64,000 nt of DNA from Phyllobates terribilis (taxonomy: Eukaryota). The notes beneath the pieces are model-generated. The model saw nothing but the letters and a program-made list of their open reading frames with translations. It had not been told where the DNA came from and did no database searches. Location of the stretch: positions 360,592,001 through 360,656,000 of the forward strand of contig NW_027362769.1 in assembly GCF_046119375.1 (NCBI RefSeq), read 5' to 3'. How positions within the stretch are numbered: position 1 is the stretch's first letter; the number at the start of each line of letters is the position of its first letter. The position numbers were made by a program, and so were the translations under genes. Positions 869-61,602 of the stretch are shown in pieces.

Positions 869-877
869 TTCCCCCCT
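869..877 (-). other. Polypurine tract of element A (AGGGGGGAA)
   Basis: Abuts the TG start of the 3' LTR. Confidence 0.85.
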
Positions 878-2197: not shown

Positions 2198-2215
2198 ATC
2201 CTGCCGACTACGCCA
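2198..2215 (-). other. Primer-binding site TGGCGTAGTCGGCAGGAT (tRNA-Ser AGA/TGA type)
   Basis: 18-nt complement of the vertebrate tRNA-Ser 3' end (ATCCTGCCGACTACG+CCA), 5 nt from the LTR end. Confidence 0.88.
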
Positions 2216-2220
2216 GAAGT

Positions 2221-4100
<1,880 letters not shown>

Positions 4101-33624: not shown

Positions 33625-34825
33625 TGTAGCACCCTGAGGATTCGGCTGCTACAGGGGTATTGCACCTCAACCCAGAGGTGTGATATCCCACTCCCGGGTA
33701 AGGAAGGAGTGTGGAACTGAGCTCAGATAGACTGCATGCACTACATACATCCCATTCCAGAGGAGCAGGCCGACGGTACTCCCACTTAGAAATGTGCAGG
33801 TACAACCGAGCCTGTTCCTGGCTGGAGTGGGAGGGGGGTGGTACATCCCATGTAGTGTAGGGGCAGATAGGGGGAGCAGTCTGGGTAGTGATAGGAGCTC
33901 ATTGGGTGCTGGTCACCTGAGCTCACACATAGAGGGATATATAAGGAGGGCACCAACTTAGATCAGGGTCAGACGCTGAGAACAAGTCAGTTGGAGAGGA
34001 GAGAGAAGGAAACAGCAGCCCTGGAGAGAGAGAGAGTGGAGCAGAGAAAGACCCAGAGGGGGAAGACTGAAGGGACCCAAGAACCCAAATTAGAGCACCG
34101 GGTGAGGAGTCAGCAAGAGGGTACCGGAACCCAAGCTGGTGGGGGTAAAGACATTCCCCAGCCAGAGACCGGAGACCGTGGGCAGTGTCTGTCACGGTCA
34201 CCCACCACATTCACCCCGAAGGCACACCACATGAAGGGTCAGGGAACCCAGGGCCAAGGGTGTCCCAAAAGAAGGCCCGAGGGAGCTGGACCTAGGTGAA
34301 TCACTGGTGGGGACGGCTGAAGAAAGGACAGAGGGAGAGCTCAGGGCCACGCTCTGGACTTGTTTGGGGGTTGGCCGGATCCAGGACCTGGTGGACGCAG
34401 CACGGCTCGGGTGGTCACTAGCAGCTGGAGTGACCAGTACAACATCAGCAGTAAGTAAACACCCTTAACTGCACAACCCGAGTCTGTCTTCATTGCCGGC
34501 TGCATCGCACCACCACAACCCCCATCCTCTGCGCCTGTCCCCTCTGAGGCTATACCCCTCCCGTTGGGGGTTATCTCACCAAGCTGCGCACCCACCATCA
34601 GCCTCAGCGGACCCTGCTGCAGCGGCGGCCACAGTGACCGCATCCCAACGGGTGGCGTAGTCGACACAAAAGAACTTTAGTAACATCTGTAAAGCTGCCA
34701 CATAACACTTAGCTTGACGCCCTGGGCACGGGACCGGGTCACAGCCGCTCGGAGACTACAACCCCCCATCTGATCCGGTGCCGGGTATTCCCCTCAAAAA
34801 GGAATATGTCCCAGGGGGCGCGTCA
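33625..34825 (+). repeat. 5' LTR of element B
   Basis: TGTAGCACCC...GGCGCGTCA; only one difference from 37391-38591 was noticed. Confidence 0.95.
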
Positions 34826-36914: not shown

Positions 36915-37381
36915 GTGCGGCAGAGCAGGTGATGTAAATAGTTACCCAATCGGGGTATAAAGGAACTGAAACTGGAACTGTTGTTGCTGCTAAAATAGTC
37001 CCCGTTGGGACCAGTGAACTGTTTTACCCGTTAACCCCTTCATCCTACAGGCTGAGGACTGTGAGCAGCCATTCCCTTTCCTCTACCTGGCCGAGGACTG
37101 AGAGCGGCCAACTTCCAACTTCCCCTGTATATAGTTGCGCGTCCTAAAGCGCCCCCTACCGGTTTTATAGGAAAACCAGTTTTTCTGAGAGACTGTCGTA
37201 CTTTTCCCGGACACACGTTGCACAGTGTCCGGAGGAGGAACCTGAAACCAGAGACGACGAGAATGTTTATATGAAAAAGTTTTATATATATATAATGTTT
37301 TATATGTTTTATATGTTCATATAAAAATTTTGTATGTTTTGGTGTTTTGTCTTACAGCCCGAGGACGTGCTGTGATTTACC

Positions 37382-37390
37382 AGGGGGGAA
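37382..37390 (+). other. PPT of element B
   Basis: AGGGGGGAA immediately before the 3' LTR. Confidence 0.88.
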
Positions 37391-38591
37391 TGTAGCACCC
37401 TGAGGATTCGGCTGCTACAGGGGTATTGCACCTCAACCCAGAGGTGTGATATTCCACTCCCGGGTAAGGAAGGAGTGTGGAACTGAGCTCAGATAGACTG
37501 CATGCACTACATACATCCCATTCCAGAGGAGCAGGCCGACGGTACTCCCACTTAGAAATGTGCAGGTACAACCGAGCCTGTTCCTGGCTGGAGTGGGAGG
37601 GGGGTGGTACATCCCATGTAGTGTAGGGGCAGATAGGGGGAGCAGTCTGGGTAGTGATAGGAGCTCATTGGGTGCTGGTCACCTGAGCTCACACATAGAG
37701 GGATATATAAGGAGGGCACCAACTTAGATCAGGGTCAGACGCTGAGAACAAGTCAGTTGGAGAGGAGAGAGAAGGAAACAGCAGCCCTGGAGAGAGAGAG
37801 AGTGGAGCAGAGAAAGACCCAGAGGGGGAAGACTGAAGGGACCCAAGAACCCAAATTAGAGCACCGGGTGAGGAGTCAGCAAGAGGGTACCGGAACCCAA
37901 GCTGGTGGGGGTAAAGACATTCCCCAGCCAGAGACCGGAGACCGTGGGCAGTGTCTGTCACGGTCACCCACCACATTCACCCCGAAGGCACACCACATGA
38001 AGGGTCAGGGAACCCAGGGCCAAGGGTGTCCCAAAAGAAGGCCCGAGGGAGCTGGACCTAGGTGAATCACTGGTGGGGACGGCTGAAGAAAGGACAGAGG
38101 GAGAGCTCAGGGCCACGCTCTGGACTTGTTTGGGGGTTGGCCGGATCCAGGACCTGGTGGACGCAGCACGGCTCGGGTGGTCACTAGCAGCTGGAGTGAC
38201 CAGTACAACATCAGCAGTAAGTAAACACCCTTAACTGCACAACCCGAGTCTGTCTTCATTGCCGGCTGCATCGCACCACCACAACCCCCATCCTCTGCGC
38301 CTGTCCCCTCTGAGGCTATACCCCTCCCGTTGGGGGTTATCTCACCAAGCTGCGCACCCACCATCAGCCTCAGCGGACCCTGCTGCAGCGGCGGCCACAG
38401 TGACCGCATCCCAACGGGTGGCGTAGTCGACACAAAAGAACTTTAGTAACATCTGTAAAGCTGCCACATAACACTTAGCTTGACGCCCTGGGCACGGGAC
38501 CGGGTCACAGCCGCTCGGAGACTACAACCCCCCATCTGATCCGGTGCCGGGTATTCCCCTCAAAAAGGAATATGTCCCAGGGGGCGCGTCA
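37391..38591 (+). repeat. 3' LTR of element B
   Basis: Near-identical to 33625-34825. Confidence 0.95.
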
Positions 38592-41500: not shown

Positions 41501-43369
41501 TACTGTATATAGAGCAGCCTGTACAGTATATAGATCAGTGTGTACAGTATATAAAGCAGCCTGTACAGTATATAGAGCAGTGTGTATAGTATATAGAGCT
41601 GCCTGTACAATTTATAGAGCAGTGTGTAGAGTATATAGAGAAATGTGTACAGTATATAGACCAGTGTGTACAGTATATAGAGCTGCCTGTACAGTATATA
41701 GAGCGGTGTGTACAGTATATAGAGCAGCGTGTACAGTATATAGAGCCGCGTGTACAGTATATAGAGCTGCCTGTACAGTATATAGAGCAGTGTGTACAGT
41801 ATATAGAGCTGCCTGTACAGTATATAGAGCAGTGTGTACAGTATATAGAGCAGTGTTTACAGTATATAGAACAGTGTGCACAGTATAAAGAGCTGCCTGT
41901 ACAGTATATAGAGTAGTGTGTACAGTATATAGAGCAGCCTGTATAGTATATAGAGCTGCCTGTACAGTATATAGAGCAATGTGTATAGTAAATAGAGCAG
42001 TGTGTACATTATATAGAGCTGCCTGTACAGTATATAGAGCAGTGTGTACAGTAAATAGAGCTGCCTGTACAGTATATAGAGCTGCCTGTACAGTATATAG
42101 AGCAGTGTGTGCAGTATATAGAGCAGCCTGTACAGTATATAGAGCAGTGTGTACAGTATATAGAGCTGCCTGTACAGTATATAGAGCAATGTGTATAGTA
42201 AATAGAGCAGTGTGTACATTATATAGAGCTGCCTGTACAGTATATAGATCAGTGTGTACAGTATATAGATCAGTGTGTACAGTAAATAGAGCAGTGTGTA
42301 CATTATATAGAGCTGCCTGTACAGTATATAGAGCAGTGTGTACAGTATATAGAGCAGTTTACACAGTATATAGAGCTGCCTGTACAGTATATAGAGCAGT
42401 GTGCACAGTATAAAGAGCTGCCTGTACAGTATATAGAGTAGTGTGTACAGTATATAGAGCAGTGTGTACAGTATATAGAGCTGCTTGTACAGTATATAGA
42501 GCAATGTGTACTGTATATAGAGCAGTATATACAGTGTATAGAGCAGTATGTACAGTATATAGAGCAGTGTGTACAGTATATAGAGCAGTGTGTACAGTTT
42601 ATAGAGCAGTTTGCACAGTATATAGAGCTGTCTGTACAGTATATAGAGTAGTGTGTACAGTATATAGAGCAGTGTGTACAGTATATAGAGCTGCCTGTAC
42701 AGTATATAGAGTAGTGTGTGCAGTATATAGAGCTGCCTGTACAGTATATAGAGCAGTGTGTACAGTATATAGAGCTGCCTGTACAGTATATAGAGCAATG
42801 TGCACAGTATAAAGAGCTGCCTGTACAGTATATAGAGTAGTGTGTACAGTATATAGAGCAGTGTGTACAGTATATAGAGCTGCCTGTACAGTATATAGAG
42901 TAGTGTGTGCAGTATATAGAGCTGCCTGTACAGTATATAGAGCAGTGTGTACAGTATATAGAGCTGCCTGTACAGTATATAGAGTAGTGTGTGCAGTATA
43001 TAGAGCAGTGTGTACAGTATATAGAGCTGCCTGTACAGTATATAGGGCAGTGTGTACAGTATATAGAGCAGTTTGCACAGTATATAGAGCAGCCTGTACA
43101 GTATATAGAGCTGCCTGTACAGTATATAGAGTAGTGTGTGCAGTATATAGAGCAGTGTGTACAGTATATAGAGCTGCCTGTACAGTATATAGAGTAGTGT
43201 GTACAGTATATAGAGCAGTGTGTACAGTATATAGAGCTGCCTGTACAGTATATAGGGCAGTGTGTACAGTATATAGAGCAGTTTGCACAGTATATAGAGC
43301 ACCCTGTACAGTATATAGAGCTGCCTGTACAGTATATAGAGCAGTTTGCACAGTATATAGAGCTGCCTG
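38592..43369 (+). repeat. 21-bp satellite array (4.8 kb)
   Basis: Variants of TGTACAGTATATAGAGC(A/T)G(TG/CC). Confidence 0.98.
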
Positions 43370-44615
43370 TGACTCGCCTCGCCCTCCCTGGCGGTGGGGT
43401 TACTCGGAGCCGGGTCAGTGTACATGTTGCGGTGATGCAGTCGTGGCCTGGACCCGTTCCGTGCCCAGGGCTGTCACATTAAAATAATGTGCTTTGGGAT
43501 GAGTGGTTGTTCGGCTATGCCACCTGTGGTTTCTGGTGAAGGCCACCAGCGCTGCAACATTCCACTGAGGCTGGTGTTAGGGGCAGCTAGGATGGGACGG
43601 CTCCCCACAGGCGGAGCAGGCCTCAGGGCAGTGTGCGAAGGAATGGTGGGTGCAATGCTGCGCAGGAATAAACAAGCGGAGGCGGTGAATGAAGTCATCC
43701 GGGTCTTTACTCACTTTAGATGAACTTTCAGCCGCAATGCTTCTCTCTGCTACTCACGGCGTACTGCGGCCACCGGGAAGGGGATCCAGCACTTCCCAGG
43801 TAGATCAGTAGCACCTGTACAGACCCCGCTGGTGTGTGTTCCTCTCCTTGGTAAGCTCTCCTACTGAAACTTCTCCTGACTGTGCGTGGAATGAACGTGG
43901 TGTAAGGCCGGGTCCCACTGGGTAAACGCAGTTTAAGAGATACAGGTGGCGACTCCGCTCCGTCCGTATCACCCTGGGATCCACTAAGCCTCCAGGCTTC
44001 TCTGACTGAGACGTGAAGTGACAAAGTCAGATATCGGGGGCAGGTTACCCCTTTTGCAGCAGGAATCCCTCTGACTAGGCCAGAGTAAAGAATACAGGTG
44101 GCGACTCCGCTCCGTCTGTATCCCCCTGGGATCCTTTTGCCTGTGGAGCCTATCTCCTCTGCTCCCCTCCTAGGCCTTCTTAGGACAGGACCCTGACCGG
44201 TTAGAGACAGTGGTTAACTCTGACTCGCTCCTCGTCTCAAGGCCAGAGTACGAGGACCGCGAATCTTCAGCCAGCTACAGACTCTTGCTGTACCCTGACA
44301 GAAGACCCTCAATCAAAGACCTCGAACTTAAGATGGCCGTGGATTATATATCAATCAATAAGTTCTTCCTTAAAGTGTGTCCTCCACCCTCACCCATTAC
44401 TAGGTTCCCCCTATCTTTAGTTCCCCCCTATCTCCTCTATCATGTGCCGGGGCAGCACCCTGGTGCATTTAGGCCCCCTACAGGACAGAAGTGATGTAGT
44501 GTTGAGTGTGAAGTGGGGTCTCGTGTGATGCTCCATCCTTACCTAGAGGAGGAGATACCACACCTCATCTGAGGTGCAGTACCCCTGTGGCGATTGAACC
44601 CTCAGGGGCGCCACA
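43370..44615 (-). repeat. 3' LTR of element C
   Basis: TGTGGCGCC...GGCGAGTCA on the minus strand, preceded by GGGGGGGAA. Confidence 0.9.
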
Positions 44616-45148
44616 TTCCCCCCCGGTGAAACTCAGCACGTCCGCGGGCTGCAATAGAGTAAAGAATTGGTACATACATTCAAAATTTTAAAAGTTTTTG
44701 TAAACATGAAACAATCTTCCCTTTATGGGAGGCTCAGTTACTTTAACGTTGCATGATATATATAGTATAAATATAGAAAACATCAAAGAGACATTATGCA
44801 TGTAGACAGTACTGTAGAAAATACGGTAGAAAAAGTCAGTTCAGCAGCATGAGGGACCTGCCCCAAACCATCAGCGTAGGCCCTGGGGTGGCTGCAGGGT
44901 ATGGAAATCCCAAGTTGGAACTTCAGTAGAGCCACACCAGACAGGTTTTGCTTCTGAGGTCTGAGGTAGAAGTGGTTTTACATAAAACCAATAGGGAGCA
45001 CCTAAATAGGTGCAAACTATTTACAAAGTTAGTCTTTCACATGCGGAGCGTCCGCAGGGACAAATGTCTCTTTCAACTAAATCCGGGTGAAAAACTTGAA
45101 AAACAAATAACAGTTCACACAATAGGGAGATCCATCTCCCGGGGCTGC

Positions 45149-45458
45149 TTAAAAGTGGGATCCCCTCCGGGGGAATGGCTCTTTCTTACCAACGGAGCCT
45201 GACCGGTCCTCTACAGCTAGGTGCGTGGGGGCGTCCTCCCTGATTACCTTGTGGACGTCCAGGGCATACCACCCACGCTCCCCGTGGTGGCGGGAGTAGT
45301 ATATCAAATTGCCCGGGTAGAGGTTCCGGCCAGGGTGGCCCTGCTCCAGCCGCGGCTCGACGTCCCGCCGGTTGACGAACACGTCCCGATTGAACTGTGA
45401 GCTGCGGATGAAGCCCCATCCTGCTACCTGGTGGAAGCACATATTAACGCCTTCCCGG
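45149..45458 (-). pseudogene. Cold-shock-domain half of the element C ORF
   Basis: EGVNMCFHQVAGWGFIRSSQFNRDVFVNRRDVEPRLEQGHPGRNLYPGNLIYYSRHHGERGWYALDVHKV aligns with the CSD of element B. Confidence 0.8.
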
Positions 45459-46591
45459 TGTGACGCCCAGCTGTGCTTGGTATCACAGATCCTAGAAGGG
45501 TGTATTGAAGGATTCCTCCACAAGAGGCCCCCATAACAATTCACACATCTCCACCTTCCACCTCAAACCACCAGAGGGAGCCCGTTAGGGATAGATAAAT
45601 AGGGAATGTGGAGCCAGGCAGCAGTTAGTCTAGACTGGACACGACAGAGAGCAAACCTGTTGAGAGAGTTCCTGCAGTATAGAAGCCTGAAAGAGGTCAG
45701 TCTGCAGTGGAGCGCAGTCCAGACTTGGTTGAAGCTCAGAGAGGTGAGCTTAGCTTAGGTGTGCCGGCGCCATAAGATCGGTGAAGCACGTCAAGCTGCC
45801 GTTAGTGTGATTAGCCTAGTGAGGGCCCGAGTAGGCCGAAGGCAAAAAGAAGAGTTAGTGCATAGGGGGCAGAGGAGCTTAACTGGCTCACCCCGAAGCA
45901 GTTACCGGACACCGGATCCGAAGCTTACCGGGATCGCCACGACCCAGTAAGATAAACCGGAATCCCTGGAGAGCTACAAGTCCCAGGATCGCTACAGTGC
46001 TGATACGTAACAATGCCAGGAGACACATAGGCCCCGTAAGTCTGGAGCGTGCACTCCAAGAGAAGGCCCTACCACAAAGTCAGTCAGCGCAGGACAGAGA
46101 CAAAGTTAGGCCTAGCTCCAGGCAGGTCAGAAACTTACTACGCAGAAGCAAGAAACAGGAGGCCCAAAACCCACTCATTGGGGAGGATTCTGACATGCAC
46201 CCTTCACCCTACAGTGCTCCGGGACGTGCCTGAATTGCCATCAGTAAAAGGTACTGAAGTGACTATCGTGTCTGTCCCCATTCTTGCTCTGACCCGGCTC
46301 GGTCTCACCTGTTCTTCATCCCCCGTCATACACTGCCCTAAGGCCTAGCTCCACCTGTGGGGAGCTATACCACCCAGCTGCCTTATCATCGGCTTCAGTG
46401 GACTGCGCAGCACTGGTGATCCTCACCAGAAGCCACAGGTGGCGTCACAAACTCTTTAATAAAACTTAACATCTATCAACGCCTTCTTTAAAGGAGAGAC
46501 CCCAGGGTACGGGCCCGGGTGCCGACCGCCGCGACATCCCCAAGGCTAAAGGCCCGGGTATCCAAGTTATCCCCATCCCCTGGGCTAGTCA
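45459..46591 (+). repeat. 5' LTR of Gypsy D
   Basis: TGTGACGCCC...GGCTAGTCA. Confidence 0.95.
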
Positions 46592-46599
46592 TCTCCTTC

Positions 46600-46618
46600 T
46601 GGCGTCACTAACAGGATT
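46600..46618 (+). other. PBS of Gypsy D (tRNA-Ser CGA-like)
   Basis: TGGCGTCACTAACAGGATT, one mismatch to my recollection of the complement of a vertebrate tRNA-Ser(CGA) 3' end (TGGCGTCACGAACAGGATT). Confidence 0.7.
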
Positions 46619-46983
46619 GCCCGTGCCCGCTGCAACGACGCCGTGTTATGCCCGTTGCCACCGGGCACTGTGCGCCTTTATTCTGAACTGTGTACGTAAA
46701 GTTGTGGTGAAGGTTGCCGCCATTGTTGGGCCACCGAGCGAGAAGAAGGGCGTAACCGCGGGAAAATTAGGGGCGTACCTGCAAAAGAGCGCGAAGCCTC
46801 GGACACGCCCCACGCTTCAACGTCAGACCAAGAGGCGCCAGGTCCTGTGAGGAACGTCGCTGAACTCTCTGACGTAGGACGCAAGCGACGCAAGGTCCTG
46901 AAGATGCCCATCACCTGCGGAGCTGCGGCCTACCGGAAGAAAGAACTAGAAGGTAGGCCAAGGTTAACTAGGGGGGCGCTAAG

Positions 46984-48038
46984 ATGTCTGACGAGCAACA
47001 GAACGCCGACATGCCGGTCAACGTCCCTGAGGTTCAACCCGCGCCCGATGATGAGCAGGCCGAAGCCGCCGCTTCACCAGCAGCGCCTGTAACACTCATT
47101 ATCCCTATGAATTTACCGTACATTCCTGGAGCAAAGTGGCTCCCCCAGTACAATGGCAAACCAGATACCCTGTCTGGATTCAAACGGAAGATATGTGGTA
47201 TCTTAGACATGTACTCTATGACCGGCAAACAAATAGCGCCGTTGTATTGGGACAACTGACCGGTGCTGCGGAACGGGAAGTGGATACGTGGTCGGCCGCA
47301 GACCAGGAGTCAGTGTCCGCAATATTCCAAAAACTACAGACTGTCTTTGAGGACCTTACTGAGGCGGACCTCCGGATGAGGTTCTACAGCTGTTCCCAAC
47401 AACCAGAGGACAATGTCCGGGACTATGCCTGGCGTCTTCAAGGGGCCCTGCGAGCTCTAAACCAGGTTAGTCCAACCAGCGTTGAGAATGAGAATAAAAT
47501 GCTGAAGGAACAGTTTGTCCGGGGACTTAGGTCTCCGGAGGAGAGCAGGACTGTGGGTTGGTGGTCCCTGGATCATCCAGATATCACCTTTGACAATCTT
47601 AAGGACATGGCTATAAAAGGACTGCAGCCCCTGGAAACAAATGCCATCCAATGTTGCCAGGGTGGGGCAACCCCAGAGCCTGTAACACCCACCTTTTCCC
47701 CAGTGGCTGCTGAAGCTAAGGTTCCAGCAACGTCCCCTAAAGAACTGGACAGTCTGCGCTCTGAGGTGTGTCAGTTGAGCAAAACCCTGACCACCGTGCT
47801 GAGTGCTCTGCAACTGTGGACGGAGCCCGAGGAAGGAGGGAAAATCCTGCTAGCCGATAGCCTTGAGGATGTCCCCTGGATGCGGAGGAGGCCAACACCG
47901 CCCTCGCCGAGGACCAGTGACCAGCGCCGTCCACCGAGGGACCCTGCCTGCTACCGCTGCCGCAAGACCGGACACATCGCCCAGAATTGTCCTTTAAACG
48001 AGAAAACCCTGGGTCCGAGGGCCGACACCCAGGAGTAA
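46984..48038 (+). pseudogene. gag: Gag with one frameshift near 47240
   Basis: PYIPGAKWLPQY..., LKEQFVRGL, and a CCHC knuckle CYRCRKTGHIAQNC. Confidence 0.9.
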
Positions 48039-51000
48039 ACTCACCAGGCCCCTCAGACTGGTACAACAGGTTCGTCGGAGGAAGACCTTTCCTGTCCATT
48101 TTGCTGGACGGGATCCCGACGAACGCCCTGCTGGACACAGGATCTCAGGTAACCATCATGCCTGACGTCCTCTACAAGAGGTTCTGGTCCATGGACGAAC
48201 TACGTCTGCCAGCTCTAAATCTTTCAGTATATGCTTCAAATGGACTCCCCCTTAACCTACTCGGGGTTAAGAATGTGACTGTGAAGGTGGGGAGAGTGGA
48301 GCTGAAGGACCAGGGACTAATTGTAGTAGAGACTAATCCTGATGACACTAATCCGTATATGGTACTTGGCACTAACATTGTTGGTAACTGTTTGGGAGAT
48401 GTTGAGTTCTTGCTCCAACAGATCGCCGACACTGCCAGGCCGAGACAGAGGCGGGCACTGCAAAGGGAGATCCGAGTCCTGATGTATCAACAGCAAGTAA
48501 GGTTAACAGACGGTGAAATCGGTGATGTGCGGGTAACAGACCCCATACCCATTGTTATCCCTCCAATGAGTGAAATGCTCATCTGGTGTAGAGCTGCCAT
48601 AGGTCTAAGAGGACAGAGCTACCAGGCGGTAATAGAACCCCTTTGCTCTGAGCATAGACCCACGCTCTTAACCGCCAGGGGAGTGGTAGATGAACGTAAT
48701 GGGAGGGTGCCCGTCCGTCTTCTCAACTTAGGGGAAGATGAGGTCAAACTGCCACGTTATGCCACTGTTGCCAAATTACATGCTGTCAATAACAACTGCA
48801 TCCATGAGGAGGAGTCCTTAACTTCACCAGACGAAGTGGAGGATAATGACCCTGCAACCCAGGTGGAGGATTGGTGTCAACAGCTCCATGTTGGGACAGA
48901 CACTACTCCTGCCCATCAAAAACAGGGTGTACACCGGGTGGTTCAAGAATACTCGCAGGTGTTCAGTAAACATCCACTAGACTTCGGGAGGGTTAAGGGG
49001 GTTCATCATCATATCCCCACAGGCAACCATTCCCCAATCAAAGAACGTTATAGGCCTATACCCCCAGCTCACTACCAGAAGGCAAAAGAAATGCTGCATG
49101 ACATAAGGAAGGCGGGAGTAATAAGGGATAGTTGTAGTCCCTGGGCAACTCCCCTAGTATTAGTGAGGAAAAAGGACGGGAGCATGAGAATGTGTGTAGA
49201 TTACCGTCAAGTAAATCGCATTACACATAAAGATGCATACCCTTTACCACGCGTAGAGGAGTCCCTAGCTGCCTTAAAGTCTGCAAATTACTTTTCCACC
49301 TTTGACCTCACTAGTGGGTACTGGCAAGTAGCTGTGGCTGAGGAGGATAGGGAAAAGACGGTCTTCACCACTCCGATGGGACTCTGCGAGTTCAACAGTA
49401 TGCCGTTCGGACTCTGCAATGCCCCCGGAAAGTTCCAGAGATTAATGGAGTGCTGCCTGGGACACCGCAACTTCGAAACTGTGTTACTTTACCTGGACGA
49501 TGTAATTGTGTACTCCAGAACATACAAGGACCACTTGAAACACCAGGCAGAGGTATTTGAGTCACTGTCCCGGTACAGGATGAAGTTGAAGCCCTCAAAG
49601 TGCCACCTGCTCAAGAGGAAGGTACAGTACCTGGGGCACATTGTCAGTCCGGAAGGGGTAGCACCAGACCCGGAGAAAGTCACAGCCATCCAGAAGTGGC
49701 CAGAGCCGAAAAACCTCAAGGAGGTGCGTCAGTTCTTGGGACTAGTATGATACTACCGGAGGTTCGTAAAGGACTACACTAAGAAGGCAGCTCCTCTGCA
49801 AGACCTCCTGGTAGGGCAGTACCCCAAAGGCAGAAATCCCCCATTCCACTGGGGTAAGGAGCAAGCCGAGTCGTTTCAGGAGATGAAGGAGATCCTGACA
49901 GGTGATGAGATCCTAGCGTACCCTGACTACAGCCAACCGTTCCTGTTGTATACAGATGCCAGCAACGAAGGGCTGGGTGCTTTATTAAGTCAGAAGCAGA
50001 ATGGCCAAGAGAAGGTGATCGCATACGCGAGCAGGAAGCTCCGCCCGACTGAAAGAAATCAAGAGAACTATAGCAGCTTCAAGTTGGAGTTCCTGGCCTT
50101 GGTCTGGGCCATCACTGAAAGGTTCAAGCACTACCTGGCCTCCAGCAAGTTCACTACCTTTACTGAAAACAACCCCTTGACCCATCTTGAAACAGCGAAG
50201 TTGGGGGCACTGGAACAACGATGGATGGCTCGGCTGTCAAACTACCAATTTACAATTAAATACCGGGTGGGCCGCAAGAACGCCAACGCCGATGCCCTGT
50301 CTAGGATGCCTCACCAGTCAGACACAGAGGAAGAAGTGGATGACCTGGAAGAGGTAGAGCTACCTGCCTTTCATCGGAGTGGGATGATCCACGAGCAATG
50401 ACCTTCCAGGAAACAGCGTGGAAAGACGTTAAACCCCCTGCCTCACCACAGCTGGAAAGAGACCCAGGACAGCGACCCGGTTGTCAGCCGCATCAAGGAG
50501 CTGATAACCCAAGAAGGTGCCTCCCTGGAGAAGGATGCGGCTCTCCAAGCAAATCAGCTGTGGAACGAGAGAAGCCGGCTGTTTATCTACCGTGAGAAGC
50601 TGTGCCGGAGGTACGTTAATCCAAAAACCCACGAGATGGTATGGCAGATAGTGGTCCCGAAGACAGACATCCAGATGGTATTAGAAGCTTACCACGATCA
50701 GGCGGGGCACTTTGACTGGAAAAAGCTAGAGACCCTGCTGAAATGTCGATTCTACTGGGTAGGAATGCGCAGCTCCATTGAGAGGTGGTGCCGGGACTGT
50801 GGACCCTGTGGCCTAAGAAGAAAAGACTTCAGCAGCCAGAAGGCACCCCTGCAACCTATCAAGACGACTCGGCCCCTGGAGATCGTGGCCCTGGACCATG
50901 TCAAGCTCTCCTCCAGCAGGTCAGGGTACTCCTATGCTCTGACCATGGTGGATCACTACTCATGTTTCCTGGTGGTCACCCCCGTCAAAGACCTGATGGC

Positions 51001-52132
51001 AGAGACAGCAGCAAAGACGTTCCAAGCGTACTTCTGCAGACCCCACAGATATCCTGAGCAGGTGCTGACGGACCAAGGCCCGGCCTTTGAGGCTGAATTG
51101 TTCAAGGAGTTCTGCCATTTGTACTGGTGTAAAAAAATCAGAACTACACCGTACCATCCACAAACTAACGGTCTCAGCGAAAAGATGAACATCATCATCG
51201 ACCTGCTAAAGACCATACCACTTGAGGAGAGAAATCAGTGGCCAGACCTACTACCTGACTTAGTGGATCAGTATAATCATATAGCAGTCAGTTCCACCAA
51301 TTGCACTCCGGCATATCTCATGCGGGCAAGGCCAGGAAAGCTGCCGATGGATCTGGAGCTTGGTGTTGATGAGCCTGAAGCTGATATGACCACTGAAAAC
51401 TGGGACAAGACCAGACAAGAGCAGTATAGAAGGGTACAAGCTTGTGTCAAGGACAGTCTTACTCGGGTGAGAGAAAAGCAGGAAAGTCAATACAACAAGA
51501 ACGCACCCGCAGAACCTTTCATACCAGGTGAAACAGTACTAAAAAGAAAAAGACGCAACCACAAACTTGATGACCAGTGGGAAAAAGACACCTACACTGT
51601 GTTACCGTCAAGGTTTGACAATAAGAAGACATGCATAATCAGTCGAGATGGAGGAAAAAGGTCCACAGCAGTGTCCAGGGACCATCTAAAGTTGTGTCCA
51701 GAATTACTGAAACCCCAAGAAAAAGTGCCTTTCACAATTCTGGAAGAACCTGAAGAAACAGTGATCCACACTGACCTAGGAGACTTCCCAGCAGATTGGC
51801 CTCAAATAGGAAGAGCAGTAATTATTCCAGTACTCCAATTCTATGAATAGCCAGAAAACCCTCCACCGCAAGTTGAACCTGTAAGCGCTGAAGAAGAGCC
51901 AGCTCAAGAAGTATCCCCGGATGAAGGATCCCCGGAAGGAGCAGAGCAAGAGGGCCCAGCCAATGGTAGACTTGCTAGTCCAAGAGAGAGGTTAAGGCAG
52001 TTTTACAACATGGTTACACGTAGAACTGGTAGAGTAACTGAGAATACAGACACTGATATCCCACCAACCACCGCACTACGCAGATCAGCACGTAGCACGC
52101 GAGGTAAACCCCCTGCTAGGTACATTGAATAA
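47987..52132 (+). pseudogene. pol: Pol in the -1 frame; a single frame with three in-frame stops (49748, 50399, 51848)
   Basis: Protease LLDTGS, reverse transcriptase YLDD, RNase H YTDAS, integrase H-H-C-C and D-D-E, C-terminal RRSARSTRGKPPARY. Confidence 0.95.
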
Positions 52133-55100
52133 AATGGTAAAAAATTTCTGGAAGTGTAGATAGTTACCCCAGTGGTATCGTATATTAAATTGTAATGTAC
52201 TGCATAATTGTTTATTTTCATGCATGCTTATCAATTTATACTTCACCTCATTAATTCTATTACTTACATAAAGGACTTCGTGGCTGAGGACTATGTGCAG
52301 CCCAAAAACTGCTATTGTATATAATTGCACTCCCTGGAGTGCCTCTTTTAGGTGACCTCAGAAGAAAAACCTGTCTGGAGTGGCTATTTTGGAGGTCCAA
52401 CTCTGGATCTTCATGCTCTGCAGCCACCCCAGGGCCTACGTAGAGGGTTTAGGATAGATCCCTCCAAATCACCAAAGTACTCTATCCTGTGAGATGGACA
52501 TCCTGTATGGGAACCTCACCATAGGAGACTTGGAGTCTGAGGACACTCTGTATTTGCTATTGTTATGTAACGTTTAAGATTCGTGCCTCCCATAAATGGG
52601 AAGATTGTTCTTATATTGCTTATGTTTCCTATTGTTATTGTTGTTTTAAAACGTACTTCCGCCCGGGAGTACTGAGTTTAACTAGGGAGGAATGTGACGC
52701 CCAGCTGTGCTTGGTATCACAGATCCTTGAAGGGTGTATTGAAGGATTCCTCCACAAGAGGCCCCCATAACCATTCACACATCTCCACCTTCCACCTCAG
52801 ACCACCAGAGGGAGCCCGTTAGGGATAGATAAATAGGGAAGGTGGAGCCAGGCAGCAGTTAGTCTAGACTGGACACGACAGAGAGCAAACCTGTTGAGAG
52901 AGTTCCTGCAGTATAGAAGCCTGAAAGAGGTCAGTCTGCAGTGGAGCGCAGTCCAGACTCGGTTGTAGCTCAGAGAGGTGAGCTTAGCTTAGGTGTGCCG
53001 GCGCCATAAGATCAGTGAAGCACGGCAAGCTGCCGTTAGTGTGAGTAGCCTAGTGAGGGCCCGAGTAGGCCGAAGGCAAAGAGGAGAGTTAGTGCATAGG
53101 GGGCAGAGGAGCTTAACTGGCTCACCCCGAAGCAGTTACCGGACACCAGGTCCGAAGCTTACCAGGATCTCCACGACCCAGTAAGATAAACCGGAATCCC
53201 TGGAGAACTACAAGTCCCAGGATCGCTAAAGTGCTGATACGTAACAAGGCCAGGAGACACATAGGCCCCGTAAGTCGGGAGCGTGCTCTACAAGAGAAGG
53301 CCCTACCACAAAGTCAGCCAGCGCAGGACAGAGACAAAGTTAGGCCTAGCTCCAGGCAGGTCAGAAACTTACTACACAGAGGCAAGAAACAGGAAACCCA
53401 AAACCCGCTCATTGGGGAGGATCCTGACATGCACCCTTCACCCTACAGTGCTCCGGGACGTGCCTGAATTACCATCAGTAAAAGGTACTGATTGAGTATC
53501 GTGTCTGTCCCCGTTCTTGCTCTGACCCGGCTCGGTCTCGCCTGTCCTGCATCCTCCGTCATACACTGCCCTGTGGCCTAGCTCCACCTGTGGGGAGCTA
53601 TACCACCCAGCTGCCTTATCATCGGCTTCAGTGGACTGCGCAGCGCTGGTGATCCTCACCAGAAGCCACAGGTGGCGTCACAAACTCTTTAATAAAACTT
53701 AACATCTATCAATGCCTTCTTTAACCCCTTAAGAACATCTGACGTACTAATACGCGTCTGTGCCCTGGGACTTAAGAGCCAGACCCGTATTAGTACGTCA
53801 TGGCGATCGCGCGCGCACACAGGCTGTGCGGGCGCGATCGCCGCCGGGTGTCAGCTGATTGTCATAGCTGACACCCGGTACTATGTGCAGGGAGCGGTCA
53901 CGCACCGCTCCCAGCACATTAACCCCCGCGATGCTGCGATCGAAGTCGATCGAAGTCGATCGCGGCATTGCGGGGGCAAGGGGAGGTGATCGCCGATACT
54001 CACCTCCTCTTCCGGCTTCCAGCGCAGTCTGCAAAGGCTTCCCGGGTGTTGCCATGACGACCCGATGTCGTCATGACAACATCCGGGTCACCAGAGAGCA
54101 GGAAGATTGCTTGGACATGCGCAGTGCATCTCCAAGCAATCTTCACACTGTGCACTTCTGACAGCCTTCATGGCATAGGGATGGTGCTCCATTCCTGTGC
54201 CATGCAGGCGATCAGAAAAAAAAAAGTGAAAGTCCCAGAGTGGGACAAAGTAATAAAGTGTATAAACTGTGTGAAAGTGGAAAAAAAAAAAAAAAAAATG
54301 TGCAAAAATATTATAAAAAAATAAAAAAAATAATACACCAAAAATAAAAATATAATGTACCCATCAATAAATATTATTATAAAAAAAATAAAAAAAAAAC
54401 AATAAAAGTACACATATTTGGTATCGCCGCGTCCGGAACAACCTGACCTATAAAACTGTCCCACTAGTTAACCCCTTCAGTGAACACGGTAAAAAAAAAA
54501 AAAAAAAAACCAAGCAAAAAACAATGCTTTATCACCATACCGCCAAACAAAAAGTGGAATAACACGCGATCAAAAAGACGCATATAAATAAAAATGATAC
54601 CGCTGAAAACGTCATCTCGTCCCGCAAAAAACAAGCCACCATATAGCTCCATCAGCCGAAAAATAAAAAAGTTATAGCTCTCAGAATAAAGCGATACTAA
54701 AAAATATTTTTTTCTATAAAATAGCTTTTATTGTGTATAAGCGCCAAAACATAGAAAAATTATACAAATGTGGTACCGCTGTAAACGTACTGACCCGAAG
54801 AGTAAAGCTGCCTCATCAATTTTACCACACGCGGAACAGAATAAAAAAAAAAAAAAAAAAACAATTCCTGAATTGTTGGTTTTTGTTTATTCTGCCTCCC
54901 AAAAATCGGAATAGAAAGCGATCAAAAAATGTCACGTGCCTGAAAATGGCACCAATAACAACGTCAAGTCATCCCGCAAAAAACGAGCCGTCACATGACT
55001 GTCTGCCAAAATTTGGAAAAATTATAGCTCTCAAAATATGGCGATGCAAAAACTAGATTTTACAAAAAATGCGTCTTTTAGTGTGTGACAGCTGTCAGTC

Positions 55101-55214
55101 ATAAAAACCCCATATGATTCTGGCATTGCTGTAATCACACCGACCCGAAGAATAAAGTCGTCTAATCACTTATACCGCACAAGGAACGGCGTCAAAAATA
55201 AACTCTTGAGTTAG

Positions 55215-55345
55215 GATTGGGCTAGGGTTAGGGCTGGGTTTGGGGCTAGGGTTGTGCTGGGGCTAGGGTTGTGCTGGGGCTAGGGTTGTGCTGGGGCTAG
55301 GGTTGTGCTGGGGCTAGGGTTGTGCTAGGGTTAGGGCTGGGGTTG
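55215..55345 (+). repeat. Telomere-like G-rich tandem repeat (17-bp unit GGGGCTAGGGTTGTGCT)
   Basis: About 5 copies flanked by GGGTTAGGG and GGGCTAGGG motifs. Confidence 0.85.
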
Positions 55346-55389
55346 GGATTTTTTTCAAAAGTAAGAAAAAAAGATGACGATATGGCGAC

Positions 55390-55689
55390 TAGTGTTGAGA
55401 GCAAGTGCTCGCTACTTGAGTTTGCATCGGGTGCTCTGGTATGCATTTAGTATCGTGGGTATTTGAGTGACATGCTCGAGTCTCTGCCCCATATGCTTCG
55501 CGGCCAAAAAACTTTACGGGGATTGCCTGCCATGCACGAGCGATCCCCGCATGTTTTTTTTTGGGTGTCTAATAACCGTGAAACATGCGGAGCAGGGACT
55601 CGAGCATGTCACTCGAGCACACGCTGTACATGGTGCATACCTGAGTACCCGATGCAAACTCAAGTAGCGAGCACTTGCGCTCAAGAATA
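55390..55689. mobile_element. hAT-type MITE, about 300 bp, nested in the piggyBac-like element
   Basis: About 50-bp inverted arms TTGAG(A/C)GCAAGTGCTCGCTACTTGAGTTTGCATCGGGT...; 8-bp flanks match only 5 of 8. Confidence 0.75.
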
Positions 55690-55769
55690 ATGAAAACTTA
55701 TTCAATATGATGACCTAATGTAAACAAATAATGTGCCGTACCTCTGGGTTCAAAATGTTCACTATACAC

Positions 55770-58130
55770 CTTAATAAAATCTTTGAGGGGTATAGTTTCC
55801 AAAATGGGGACACTTGTGGGGGAGCTCCACTGTTTAGGCACATCACGGGCTCTCCAAACGCGACATGGTGTCCGCTAACAAATTGAATGGAAAATCGGCT
55901 CAAATTGTTAGCGGACACCACATTGCGTTTGGAGAGCCCCTCTGTGCCCAAACTTTGGAGCTCCCCCACAAGTGACCCCATTTTGGAAACTAGACCCCCC
56001 AAGGCACCTTTCTAGATGCATAGTGAGCACTTGGAACCCCCAGGTGCTTCACAAATTGATTCGTAAAAATGAAAAAGTGAAAAAAAAAACACTTTTTCAT
56101 TTTTATGAATCAATTTGTGAAGCACCTGGGGTTCCAAGTGCTCACTATGAATCTAGATAGGTGCCTTGGGGGGTCTAGTTTCCAAAATGGGGTCACTTGT
56201 GGGGGAGCTCCAATGTTTGGGCACACAGGGACTCTCCAAATGCAACATGATATCCGCTAACAAATTGTCGGCTCAAATTGTTAGCGGATATCATGTTGCA
56301 TTTGGAGAGTCCCTGTGTGCCCAAACATTGGAGCTCCCCCACAAGTGACCCCATTTTGGAAACTAGACCCCCCAAGGCACCTATCTAGATGCATAGTGAG
56401 CACTTGGAACCCCTAGGTGCTTCACAAATTAATTCGTAAAAATGAAAAAGTGTTTTTTTTTTCACTTTTTCATTATTACGAATCAATTTGTGAAGCACCT
56501 GGGGGTTCCAAGTGCTCACTATGCATCTAGAAAGGTGCCTTGGGGGGTCTAGTTTCCAAAATGGGGTCACTTGTGGGGGAGCTCCAAAGTTTGGGCACAG
56601 AGGGGCTCTCCAAACGCAATGTGGCGTCCGCTAACAATTTGAGCCGATTTTCCATTCAATTTGTTAGCGGATACCATGTTGCATTTAGAGAGTCCCTGTG
56701 TGCCCAAACATTGGAGCTCCCCCACAAGTGACCCCATTTTGGAAACTAGACCCCCCAAGGCACCTATCTAGATGCATAGTGAGCACTTGGAACCCCTAGG
56801 TGCTTCACAAATTGATTCGTAAAAATGAAAAAGTGTTTTTTTTTTCACTTTTTCATTATTACGAATCAATTTGTGAAGCACCTGGGGGTTCCAAGTGCTC
56901 ACTATGCATCTAGAAAGGTGCCTTGGGGGGTCTAGTTTCCAAAATGGGGTCACTTGTGGGGGAGCTCCAAAGTTTGGGCACAGAGAAGCTCTCCAAACGC
57001 AATGTGGTGTCCGCTAACAATTTGAGCCGATTTTCCATTCAATTTGTTAGCGGATACCATGTTGCATTTAGAGAGTCCCTGTGTGCCCAAACATTGGAGC
57101 TCTCCCACAAGTGACCCCATTTTGGAAACTAGACCCCCCAAGGCACCTATCTAGATGCATAGTGAGCAGTTGGAACCCCCAGGTGCTTCACAAATTGATT
57201 CATAAAAATGAAAAAGTGTTTTTTTTTTTCACTTTTTCATTGTTACGAATCAATTTGTGAAGCACCTGGGGGTTCCAAGTGCTCACTATGCATCTAGATA
57301 GGTGCCTTGGGGGGTCTAGTTTCCAAAATGGGGTCACTTGTGGGGGAGCTCCAATGTTTGGGCACACAGCAGCTCTCCAAACGCAACATGGTGTCGCTAA
57401 CAATTTGAGCCAATTTTGCGTTAAATTTGTTAGCGGACACCATGTTGCATTTAGAGAGCCGCTGTGTGCCCAAATATTGGAGCTCCCCCACAAGTGACCC
57501 CATTTTGGAAACTAGACCACCCAAGGCACCTATCTAGATGCATAGTGAGCACTTGGAACCCTCAGGTGCTTCACAAATTGATTCATACAAATGAAAAAGT
57601 GTTTTTTTTTTCACTTTTTCATTGTTACGAATCAATTTGTGAAGCACCTGGGGGTTCCAAGTGCTCACTATGCATCTAGATAGGTGCCTTGGGGGGTCTA
57701 GTTTCCAAAATGGGGTCACTTGTGGGGGAGCTCCAATGTTTGGGCACACAGGGACTCTCTAAATGCAACATGGTGTCCTCTAACAAATTTAACGGAAAAT
57801 CGGCTCAAATTGTTAGCGACACCATATTGCGTTTGGAGATCCGCTGTGTGCCCAAACATTGGAGCTCCCCCACAAGTGACCCCATTTTGGAAACTAGACC
57901 CCCCAAGGCACCTATCTAGATGCATTGTGAGCACTTGGAACACTCAGGTGCTTCACAAATTGATTCATAAAAATGAAAAAGTGTTTTTTTTTTTCACTTT
58001 TTCATTGTTACGAATCAATTTGTGAAGCACCTGGGGGTTCCAAGTGCTCACTATGCATCTAGAAAGGTGCCTTGGGGGGTCTAGTTTCCAAAATGGGGTC
58101 ACTTGTGGGGGAGCTCCAAAGTTTGGGCAC
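55770..58130. repeat. Array of about 383-bp palindromic units (about 6 copies)
   Basis: AAAATGGGGTCACTTGTGGGGGAGCTCC-type motif at 55801, 56184, 56558, 56941, 57325, 57707 and 58090, with its reverse complement between each pair. Confidence 0.92.
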
Positions 58131-59099
58131 ACATGGGCTCTCCAAACACAACATGGCGTCCGCTAATTATTCAAGCAAATTTTACAATCAAAAAGTCAAA
58201 TAGCGCTCCTTCCCTTCCGAGCCCTGCCGTGCGCCCAAACAGTATTTTTTCCCCAAATATTGGGTATCTGCGTGCCCAGGGGAAATTGCACAACAAATTT
58301 TGGGGTCCATTTTTTCTTGTTACCCCTGTGAAAATAAAAAAAATTGGGTCTAAATTAACATTTTTGTGAAAAAAGTTAAATGTTCATTTTTTTCTTCCAC
58401 ATTCAAAAAATTCCTGTGAAGCACCTGAAGGGTTAATAAAGTTCTTGAATGTGGTTTTGAGCACCTTGAGGGGTGCAGTTTTTAGAATGGTGTCACTTTT
58501 GGGTATTTTCTGTCATAAAGACCTCTCAAAGTGACTTCAAATGTGATGTGGTCCCTAAAAAAATGGTTTTGTAAATTTTGTTGGAAAAATGAGAAATCGC
58601 TGGTCAACTTTTAACCCTTATAGCTCCCTAACAAAAAAAAATTTTGGTTCCAAAATTGTGCTGATGTAAAGTAGACATGTGGGAAATGTTATTTATTAAC
58701 TCTTTTGTGTGACATATCGCTCTGATTTCAGGGCTTAAAAATTCAAATTTTGAAAATTGCAAAATTTTCAAAATTTTCGCCAAATTTCCGTTTTTTTCAC
58801 AAATAAACGCAAGTGATATCGAAGAAATTTTTCCACAATCATGAAGTACAATATGTCACGAAAAAACAATCTCAGAATCAGGGGGATCCGTTGAAGCGTT
58901 CGAGAGTAATTACCTCATAAAGTGACAGTGGTCAGAATTGTAAAAATTGGCCCGGTCATTAACGTGCAAACCACCCGCGGGGCTTAAGGGGTTAAAGGAG
59001 AGACCCCAGGGTACGGGCCCGGGAGAAGACCGCCGCGACATCCCCAAGGCTAAAGACCCGGGTATCCAAGTCATCCCCATCCCCTGGGCTAGTCACCGG

Positions 59100-59968
59100 G
59101 GGCTTGGACGGGTGGTCTCCGCCTGACGGGCCTGTGTTTTGGCAGCCTTGGCACTCACCTCCAGGTGCTCACAGCGGATCCTCCTGTCTCGCCGCTCCTT
59201 CTCGAACTGGAGGAGCTCTTTACGGCAGGTCTCCTCCCACCTACGCGCTTCGGCCTGGGTCTCCCGGGGGAAGTCCATCAGGTCGTCCCCCGGTTGTCCC
59301 AGGCAAACTCTTCGGCCACTTGACAGGTGACCGGAGGTTCGGGTAGCGGCAGTAACGGGCTGCTGCGGGCCCTCTGTTGGTGCGGATCAGTCCGGGTTGG
59401 GGCAGGTGTTCACCCAGGTAAGCGGAGGGTTCCCCGGATCGGGAGTCGGGAGGCATAGCAGGTCTCCGAAAGTGGCGGTGGCTTGTGTCTCGGCCTCTGG
59501 AGCCAGGAGTTGCTCCCAAACAATGGCGCCCGGGGATAGGGGTGCCGGAAGGATATCTAGGAGGGCCTCGGTGCGTCCCGTGCCCGGGATAGGGGTTTCA
59601 GCCTTACCCTCACTTGGGCTGCACAGGGCCTCCTGGGCTTCCTCCGCCTGGGCTGGAGCCTCACTGGTCAGGCGCGATGAGCTCTGGCAGCGGGCCTTGA
59701 TCCTCCGCAACACCTCTTCTCTCCATTCTGCGGCGGCCAGTCGCTGGGCCTCTTCGACCCTCCGGGTCAGTTCCTGCGTTTCACCACGGAGGAACTCGTC
59801 TTTCTCCGCGGTCAGGTGGATTCTCTCCATAGTGAGGGAGGTAGCAGCTGGTGGGCCAGCGACGGAGGACGTCTCCTTTGCTGCTTCCATCTTTGCTGCT
59901 CGGTACGGTCTGTTTCTCCTCCTTCTTTTGGGGCGGCTCCCTGAAGGGCACTCTTTGGAACGTCCCAT
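59100..59968 (-). pseudogene. N-terminal and central part of the element C CSD-protein ORF (frameshifted)
   Basis: RPKRRRRNR, coiled coil ELTRRVEEAQRLAAAEWREE, and FAWD..GDDLMDFPRETQAEARRWEETCRKELLQFEKERRDRR, similar to FVWDPTGEDLMGFTGETRAAAAERTECCRQQLAEFKREREERR in element B. Confidence 0.75.
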
Positions 59969-60210
59969 CCGTCTTGACGGACACTACTATGCGGACTGTC
60001 TCTGCTGCAGGGGGCGGTCTGCACTTTTGGCGCCACTGGGGAGCCAGGCCCACGATGGCAGGACTTTGGTTGCTGTTGTTTTTGCACATAATCGCGTCCG
60101 TTCTTCTTGGGCGGTGCCACGTTAAGTGTGTAACAACAGTTTTTTGTGAAAAAGGCGCACAGTACCCGACGGCAATGAGGGTTTTCCTATTCCATTGCTG
60201 CGGGCTCGCA

Positions 60211-60228
60211 ATCCTGCCGACTACGCCA
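60211..60228 (-). other. PBS of element C (tRNA-Ser AGA/TGA type)
   Basis: TGGCGTAGTCGGCAGGAT, identical to elements A and B. Confidence 0.9.
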
Positions 60229-60234
60229 AGTTGG

Positions 60235-61385
60235 TGACTCGCCTCACCCTCCCTGAGCGGTGGGGTTACTCGGAGCCGGGTCAGTGTAGATGCAGTCGTG
60301 GCCTGGACCAGTTCCGTGCCCAGGGCTGTCACATTAAAATAATAGGCTTTTGGATGATTGGTTGTTCGGCTACGCCACCTGTGGTTTCTGGTGAAGGCCA
60401 CCAGCGCTGCAACAGTCCACTGAGGCTGGTGTTAGGGGCAGCTAGAATGGGACAGCTCCCCACAGGCGGAGCAGGCCTCAGGGCAGTGTGCGAAGGAATG
60501 GTGGGTGCGGTGCCGCGCAGGAATAAACAAGCGGAGGCGGTGAATGAAGTCATCCGGGTCTTTACTCACTTTAGATGAACTTTCAGCCGCAAAGCTTCTC
60601 TCTGCTACTCACGGCGTACTGCAGCCACCGGGAAGGGGGTCCAGCACTTCCCAGGTAGATCAGGAGCACCTGTCGAGACCCCGCTGGTGTGTGTTCCTCT
60701 CCTTGGTAAGTTCTCACACTGAGCCTTCTCCTGACTGTGCGTGGAATGAACGTGGTGTAAGGCCGGGTCCCACTGGGTAAACGCAGTTTAAGAGATGCAG
60801 GTGGCGACTCCGCTCCGTCCGTATCACCCTGGGATCCACTAAGCCTCCGGGCTTCTCTGACTGAGACGTGAAGTAACAAACTCAGATATCGGGGGCCGGT
60901 TACCCCTTTTGCAGCAGGAATCCCTCTGACTAGGCCAGAGTAAAGAATACAGGTGGCGACTCGGCTCCGTCCGTATCCCCCTGGGATCCTTTTGCCTGTG
61001 GAGCCTATCTCCTCTGCTTCCCTCCTAGGCCTTCTTAGGATAGGACCCTGACCTTGTAGAGACAGTGGTTAACTCTGACCCGCACCTCGTCTCAAGGCCA
61101 GAGTACGAGGACCGCAAATCTTCAGCCAGCTACAGACTCTTGCTGGACCCTGACAGAAGACCCTCATTTAAAGACCTTGAACTATCTTTGGTTCCCCCCC
61201 ATCTCCTCTATCCCGGGCCGGGGCAGCACCCTGGTGCATTTAGGCCCCCTACAGGACAGGAGTGATGTAGTGTTGAGTGTGGAGTGGGGTCTCGTGTGAT
61301 GCTCTATCCATACCTAGAGGAGGAGATACCACACCTCATCTGAGGTGCAGTACCCCTGTGGCGACTGAAACTTCAGGGGTGCCAC
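60235..61385 (-). repeat. 5' LTR of element C
   Basis: Similar to 43370-44615 but with many substitutions and about 95 bp shorter; the outer end merges into the 37-bp repeat. Confidence 0.88.
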
Positions 61386-61602
61386 CACCTTGTCCCCTGC
61401 AGAGCTGTATGATCAGTGCCACCACCTTGTCCCGGCATAGCTGTATGATCAGAGCCACCATCTTGCCCCGGCATAGCTGTATGATCAGAGCCTCCACCTT
61501 GTCCCCTGAAGAGCTGTATGATCAGTGCCACTACCTTGTCCCCTGCAGAGCTATATGATCAGTGCCACCACCTTGTCCCCGGCAGATCTGTATGATCAGA
61601 GC
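61380..61602 (+). repeat. 37-bp H1-downstream minisatellite (about 6 copies) with no H1 gene in front
   Basis: Same unit as 21148-21562 and followed by the same spacer to H3. Confidence 0.92.

Follow-up and report, generated by a model that had tools for sequence, protein, structure and literature searches.

Element C is a long terminal repeat (LTR) retroelement, split by a nested Gypsy element, in a 64,000-nucleotide stretch of the genome of the poison frog Phyllobates terribilis (NCBI RefSeq assembly GCF_046119375.1, contig NW_027362769.1, forward-strand positions 360,592,001 to 360,656,000; hereafter the window, whose coordinates are used below). We found that C is one of at least six two-LTR families, a radiation whose sole gene encodes a cold shock domain (CSD) protein, and that this gene has been held under purifying selection as the families diverged. 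The reading that we favor, with moderate confidence and from sequence comparison, is that C is an older family within a radiation lacking gag and pol, in which a selected, probably Y-box-derived CSD would bind the RNA of its own element and aid its entry into the particles of helper elements. Of these points, the function is far less certain than the anatomy and the selection.

A preliminary description of the window had proposed that a Gypsy element flanked by CCGG splits the C gene, that its removal rejoins the gene in frame, and that the repaired protein resembles that of a second CSD element in the window, B. The nested Gypsy, which we call G (45459-59095), is as described: it spans 13.6 kb, has the 4-bp CCGG on both sides, and contains gag along with protease, reverse transcriptase, RNase H and integrase. 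The rejoined gene stood only in part. The two flanks, each translated alone, do read ...ETTRPSPR and EGVNMCF..., but in the window the rejoined 5' piece is broken by an in-frame stop (59387-59389) and frame shifts, and the start block lies in another frame. Likewise, the WD..G(E/D)DLM motif ascribed to C is in frame in other copies only, the WD of the window copy being out of frame (LGQPGDDLM).

Uninterrupted copies of C supplied the missing reading frames. Of the 30 best C-type loci, 27 show the two flanks joined directly, with no insertion; these loci are about 85% identical to the window copy and have open frames of 119-529 amino acids. The other three are the window copy itself and two near-identical duplicates on the same contig. 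A natural, uninterrupted C copy aligns with B over the motif, the helix and the CSD at 71/162 identities (44%; E value 1e-29) and over the N-terminal block at 31/69 (E value 4e-9), and even the damaged window pieces match B, both in the CSD (33/69, 48%; E value 1e-18) and in GDDLM plus helix (21/55; E value 5e-4). The likeness between the B and C proteins is thus significant. As had also been noted, B and C carry the same 18-nucleotide primer-binding site (PBS), while their LTRs are largely unrelated, being alike only over the first ~78 nucleotides, at 75% identity.

The earlier suggestion of at least two families proved an understatement. From a common start block onward, B, B2, C and D are collinear, and further searches yielded B2, D, E, H and I together with isolated old copies; there are at least six families, all without gag and pol. 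Family H has an 819-amino-acid frame and the same PBS, lacks the WD..DLM helix but keeps the CSD, and resembles neither B nor C in its DNA. In both sets of two-LTR CSD elements compared, matches to gag or pol were absent between the LTRs (0/14 and 0/7), and Pfam found the CSD and no gag family in the frames of B, C, D, H and I. Copies of B, C, D, E and H have two direct LTRs ending in TG..CA, a polypurine tract (PPT) precedes the 3' LTR, and target duplications were 4 bp in seven of the eight elements fetched and 5 bp in the eighth. The PBS matches 28 tRNA-like genes in the assembly, compared with none for a control, and ARAGORN called tRNA-Ser(AGA) at both of the PBS-matching loci scanned. 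The D LTR has parts in common with both the B LTR and the C LTR.

Selection on the gene, claimed in the preliminary description, was borne out by dN/dS estimates (Nei-Gojobori) on natural copies. For the CSD, dN/dS was 0.07-0.36 in 18 of 19 pairs, the remaining pair being saturated, with bootstrap upper bounds of at most 0.68; the two B versus C values were 0.27 and 0.33. The WD-plus-helix block gave 0.07-0.34 in the 14 of 19 pairs that were unsaturated, and subfamilies of B differ at about 0.1. In a frame control, the true frame gave 0.09-0.25 in six of seven pairs (B-C was saturated), and shifted sense frames gave 0.89-2.48. Core residues are kept even though the families are only 34-37% identical overall, and a surface WD..GEDLM motif and a cysteine are invariant in B, B2, C and D. 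Since the fully read elements lack pol, it was most probably the non-autonomous lineages themselves that were under selection. These values also bear on the idea that the frame is open only for RNA-level reasons, such as translation stabilizing the transcript, with the CSD as a passenger. The low-complexity middle of the protein, which varies in length, and the overlap of the N-terminal block with leader DNA common to helpers would both suit that idea. However, amino acid changes, and not stops alone, are depleted in the CSD and helix, the core residues survive at low overall identity, and a dN/dS well below 1 with saturated synonymous sites has already largely refuted it; we regard it as very improbable.

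Where the CSD came from was addressed with a tree of 41 frog CSD rows over 78 columns, together with CSDE1, bacterial and dinoflagellate CSDs. All 41 frog rows form one clade apart from the others (support 85/88), within which C (100/99) and B plus B2 (97/95) are subclades. The CSDs of B and C therefore group with other element CSDs and are not divided among separate host genes. Intact YBX, LIN28 and CARHSP1 sequences were absent from the tree, and the identity of the donor therefore rests on profile scores. A profile built from 15 element CSDs gave scores of 48-50 bits for YBX1 and YBX2, 40.8 for the best bacterial Csp, 21 for CARHSP1, 19 for LIN28B and 18 for CSDE1, and F, H and the single-copy locus L126 each match YBX first. 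A single clade with a Y-box best match fits one capture followed by long selection, and capture of the CSD from a Y-box mRNA, once, is the most likely origin. The preliminary description was right about selection but had set it against a one-off capture of a host gene; the two are compatible. Family F consists of three local copies of a CSD frame (L111, L112 and L142; G000:C4:791.48-791.52 Mb, G000 being this assembly) that retain the His of the second ribonucleoprotein motif (RNP2) and align to YBX free of gaps. F as an active family or as the donor was unsupported, the three copies lying within 40 kb, with no LTR pair found on either side.

Against Pfam PF00313, B (35 bits), D (42) and I (32.8) exceed the 27-bit cut-off, while C (21.6 for the window piece, E value 2e-4, and 24.3) and H (22.5) fall below it, at E values of 2e-4 to 3e-5. 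A predicted model shows the five-strand barrel of the CSD fold (mean predicted local distance difference test score, 70), and its top Foldseek matches are CSDs (CspA, E value 4e-4). In the model a 45-residue helix (residues 22-66) leads into the barrel. This segment, earlier called a coiled coil, is one long predicted helix, 47-53% charged and with few hydrophobic residues, and would suit a single alpha-helix no less than a coiled coil.

Related autonomous elements are candidate helpers. With the gag fragment of element A, elsewhere in the window, as query, we found a family of young autonomous elements, about 7.9 kb long, that have gag, pol and the same PBS and leader; their LTR pairs are at least 99% identical in all 14 loci, of 16, for which a pair was compared. 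B, B2 and D share the 3' part of the LTR and the leader with autonomous elements, the 3' ~370 nucleotides of the D LTR being 87-91% identical to one of them. C and G have in common 111 nucleotides of 3' untranslated region (UTR) at 90% and 119 nucleotides of LTR at 76-79%, and the PPT type and LTR ends are common to CSD and autonomous elements. Element A is a mosaic: its interior matches the helper at 98.6% (bases 1-737), a B2-type element at 70% (732-1043; E value 1e-36) and the helper again at 93% (1038-1351). It represents a high-copy recombinant family, with helper LTR and gag start, 158-amino-acid frames and many near-identical copies, for which template switching between co-packaged RNAs would be the simplest source. 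The common cis signals and family A point, indirectly, to co-packaging and to mobilization of the CSD elements in trans by autonomous Gypsy helpers.

None of the 17 gag-pol elements with the same PBS or leader contained a CSD; this sample comprised 16 of 150 matches, chosen for a longer gag frame, plus one related element adjoining a C copy. The result argues against an alternative in which the CSD elements arose by deletion from an autonomous Gypsy, so far unseen, with the CSD as an additional open reading frame (ORF) or integrase tail, and in which the selection was imposed on that parent. Extra ORFs are known in autonomous LTR elements (PMC5408684), and at one locus (L146/L151; G000:C3:193027508-193027843, minus strand) a Gypsy integrase of another lineage runs in frame, through one stop, into the helix and CSD of family I. 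However, this junction is present in only 1 of 30 family-I loci and the integrase appears cut short, so we rejected the fusion as an ancestral form. Moreover, B subfamilies have diverged at a dN/dS of about 0.1, and every fully read B-type element is without pol. We consider an unseen parent quite improbable.

Under the favored reading, a Y-box gene would have been captured once and its CSD then kept by selection inside non-autonomous elements. The CSD protein would bind the transcript that encodes it, as its fold and retained aromatic residues suggest; the phenylalanine of ribonucleoprotein motif 1 (RNP1; F74 position) and the RNP2 aromatic (F/Y85 position) are each kept in 40 of 41 rows. Binding may improve the stability of the element RNA and its entry into the particles of related autonomous Gypsy elements, with the CSD protein replacing or outcompeting host Y-box proteins and the helpers supplying the copying machinery. 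A gene in a non-autonomous element can be selected only if it mostly helps its own copy, from which a benefit in cis would follow. There is some precedent for Y-box proteins in retroelement biology, as YB-1 has been reported to support HIV replication (PMC6040738) and YBX1 and CSDA to be present in L1 particles (PMC3753637).

The CSD protein may instead coat the element transcript against decay or small-RNA silencing, with no role in packaging. A Y-box protein is the best match of these CSDs, and Y-box proteins of oocytes mask maternal mRNA. Selection on the CSD in every family pair tested and its retention in family H, where the WD..DLM helix is absent, are likewise what masking would predict. 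Protection from silencing should, however, also profit autonomous elements, yet none of the 17 carries a CSD, and the upstream WD..DLM helix of B, C and D is under constraint equal to that on the CSD, a sign that binding to a partner may be involved too. We rate masking without packaging as somewhat unlikely.

Several observations weigh against our favored reading. As to the donor, the element-CSD clade was unstarred at its support of 85/88 on 78 columns, and one decayed YBX-like row fell on a long branch among the bacterial rows. B alone scored a bacterial Csp slightly above YBX1 (27.3 versus 24.5 bits), C alone gave no match under an E value of 0.3, and the Foldseek search with the predicted model placed CspA first. 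As to helpers, G, the closest autonomous match of C, has a PBS different from that of C; families H and I gave no link to any helper, H being without a match. As to binding, the W65 equivalent is lost in all 41 rows and the H87 equivalent in 39 of 41; W65, F74, F85 and H87 are the nucleic acid contacts in YB-1 (PMC7498358). A weak or altered mode of binding is therefore possible, as is a protein-protein role in its stead.

These losses, together with the invariant surface motif and cysteine, would be expected if the altered CSD bound RNA poorly and acted as a decoy, competing with host Y-box proteins or interfering with the helper so as to divert helper proteins to the non-autonomous RNA. Yet the two central aromatic RNA contacts persist in nearly every row, and a diffusible protein of this kind would help all elements alike, so that selection could hardly maintain it in a single family. 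We consider a decoy unlikely.

Non-autonomous LTR elements are already known as a class: large retrotransposon derivatives (LARDs) and miniature terminal-repeat retrotransposons (TRIMs) have no conserved ORF, and gag is the sole ORF of terminal-repeat retrotransposons with a gag domain (TR-GAGs). The CSD elements resemble all three, as usually defined, in their two LTRs, PBS, PPT, short target duplication, lack of pol and putative reliance on a helper. They differ from LARDs and TRIMs in that purifying selection acts, in several families, on a single long frame, and from TR-GAGs in that this gene encodes a host-type CSD protein and not gag. Among Ty3/Gypsy elements with a PNMA-like gag, both G and the A-type family have the same PBS position, PPT, LTR ends and 4-bp target duplication as the CSD elements, with LTR, leader and 3' UTR segments in common, but encode gag and pol and no CSD, whereas the CSD elements encode neither. 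LINE-1 ORF1p, which has a coiled coil and an RNA recognition motif and acts in cis, is a possible functional analogue, as it too pairs an element-encoded helix with a putative single-strand RNA-binding domain, but its fold and element class are unrelated. Compared with YBX1 and YBX2 (PDB 1h95, 6a6j and 7f3i), the element CSDs have the best profile match, the same long loop after RNP2 and the F74 and F85 equivalents; they differ in the lost contacts, in being encoded by a single open frame inside an LTR element and, in B, C and D, in lying near the C terminus behind a long helix. A parallel for capture is found in bdelloid LTR retrotransposons, in which esterases and exonucleases were acquired as ORF3 (PMC5408684). 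There, too, a captured non-core gene has been kept by LTR elements and is common to several lineages, but ORF3 is added to gag and pol, whereas the CSD takes the place of these genes and is missing from the autonomous relatives examined.

We found no description of non-autonomous LTR families with a selected CSD as their only gene in the literature searched, a scope outside which supplements, Repbase and Dfam lie. The main text available for PMC6278860, bioRxiv 2023.11.06.565769, PMC12208295, PMC6431247 and PMC12822217 does not mention cold shock or CSD. Elements of this class are usually regarded as non-coding passengers, while the present families keep a probably host-derived gene under strong selection. 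That they keep it while their putative helpers do without implies that the advantage acts in cis and that helper and freeloader are in conflict.

The families differ in age. LTR-pair identity is 99.6-99.9% in B and 93-97% in C. B is thus a very young family, with very recent amplification, and C is older. Among the best 150 matches to a B query, all 150 scored matches were 100% identical over 147 amino acids, and 144 lay in frames of at least 600 amino acids. Copies are dispersed over many contigs. Contigs of four runs also cover B, but as these say nothing about transcription, strand or level they were given no weight as evidence of expression. In a sample of 40 evenly spaced 10-kb pieces (400 kb), there were two CSD copies, and B/B2/D/E-type DNA made up 13,895 of 400,000 bases (about 3.5%, a figure possibly inflated by LTR parts common to helpers); C, H and I types were absent from this sample. 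Extrapolation gives ~50,000 copies, with a Poisson range, from two copies, of roughly 6,000-190,000. Named database relatives came only from P. terribilis, Ranitomeya variabilis, R. imitator and Anomaloglossus baeobatrachus, although such searches are weak evidence of absence elsewhere, as transposon frames often go unannotated. The best library representatives were rejected as relatives: 145 of 150 scored through at least two repeated domains, and those named ones that were checked came from bacteria or dinoflagellates. Genomes larger than 10 Gb are known in some poison frogs (PMC12822217), and abundant CSD families offer a testable lead on why they are so large. More tentatively, it is possible that these are satellite retroelements with a piracy gene, in which a captured Y-box domain serves as an adaptor that holds the element RNA and loads it into helper particles, copies number in the tens of thousands, and a single-copy member is the donor or a domesticated form. 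If true, a CSD adaptor would have fueled part of the expansion of poison-frog genomes.

One apparently single-copy CSD frame lies beside an astacin gene (L140:4826-5608; G000:C9:374391325-374392107, plus strand; 261 open codons). Of the CSD frames tested it comes nearest to YBX1 (36 bits), and it matches the N terminus of the R. imitator gene model CAJ0915306.1 at 84 of 115 positions. The astacin/CUB exons of that model lie about 40 kb downstream of the frame on the same strand in the P. terribilis assembly. Its same position in two genomes makes this frame a candidate domesticated gene or donor retrogene. Gene models annotated as CSD proteins in poison frogs can be transposons. In two database models (P0003 and P0004), element CSD or helix pieces are fused to unrelated transposase domains (PF13359 and PF13843); these are likely annotation chimeras. 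Separately, L061-L066 (G000:C1:734.44 Mb) form a CSDE1-like retrocopy that has no introns, is duplicated in part and contains long open frames.

The features of the window are collected in the table below.

Table. Element C, its nested insertions and the comparison elements A and B in the 64,000-nucleotide window.
Feature	Position	Strand	Remarks
Element A (comparison)	1..3290	-	Recombinant: autonomous Gypsy and B2-type CSD element
Element B (comparison)	33625..38591	+	LTRs 33625-34825 and 37391-38591; PBS 34830-34847
Element B open frame	34716..36914	+	CSD at 36606-36806
Element C 3' LTR	43368..44615	-	1248 nt, TG..CA
Element C PPT	44616..44635	-	Type common to B and nested Gypsy G
Element C 3' UTR stretch common to G	44851..44961	-	111 nt; 82% identity here
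C gene 3' piece	45149..45454	-	CSD (about 45248-45451) and short tail
Left copy of CCGG target-site duplication	45455..45458	+	
Nested Gypsy G 5' LTR	45459..46591	+	
G PBS	46600..46617	+	Unlike B/C site
G gag and pol	47055..51850	+	PNMA-like gag with zinc knuckle; protease, reverse transcriptase, RNase H, integrase; stops interrupt frames
G 3' LTR, two parts	52693..59095	+	52693-53724 and 58992-59095; 96% and 95% identical to 5' LTR
Non-coding insertion between two TTAA sites	53725..58991	.	5.3 kb; inverted ends; splits G 3' LTR
C gene 5' piece	59096..60089	-	Start block, first helix, proline-rich linker, GDDLM, charged helix
Right copy of CCGG target-site duplication	59096..59099	+	
Element C PBS	60211..60228	-	Complementary to tRNA-Ser(AGA) 3' end
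Element C 5' LTR	60233..61386	-	Terminal bases altered

The LTRs of C differ at 57 of 1152 aligned bases (60233-61386 versus 43368-44615), those of B at 1 of 1201. In the window copy of C the ends of the 5' LTR differ from TG..CA, and no target duplication was found at the element's own ends. The 3' UTR stretch is about 84-90% identical to G in most other C copies. The gag-pol region of G (47055..51850) gave no CSD match. The insertion that splits the G 3' LTR is likely a DNA transposon, and the nesting gives the order of insertion as C, then G, then the TTAA element. A histone gene cluster surrounds the window in this 10.57-Gb genome. The junction between C and the nested Gypsy is duplicated nearby in inverted orientation at >99% identity (L032 and L033; G000:C9:360.77 and 360.90 Mb), likely together with the histone cluster. 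Element B of the window, despite its near-identical LTRs, has no target duplication and is located in a 21-bp satellite. B2 and H also occur as tandem arrays with common LTRs (L109, L131, L132 and L138). Lastly, in the LTRs of B, C, D and G the first part of the PBS proper to each family is partially repeated 153-174 nucleotides before the LTR end (window positions 34652-34665, about 43512-43525 on the minus strand, and 46439-46452, and also in the D copy L108). This copy varies together with the PBS type and may represent either an additional contact for the primer or an older end of the LTR.

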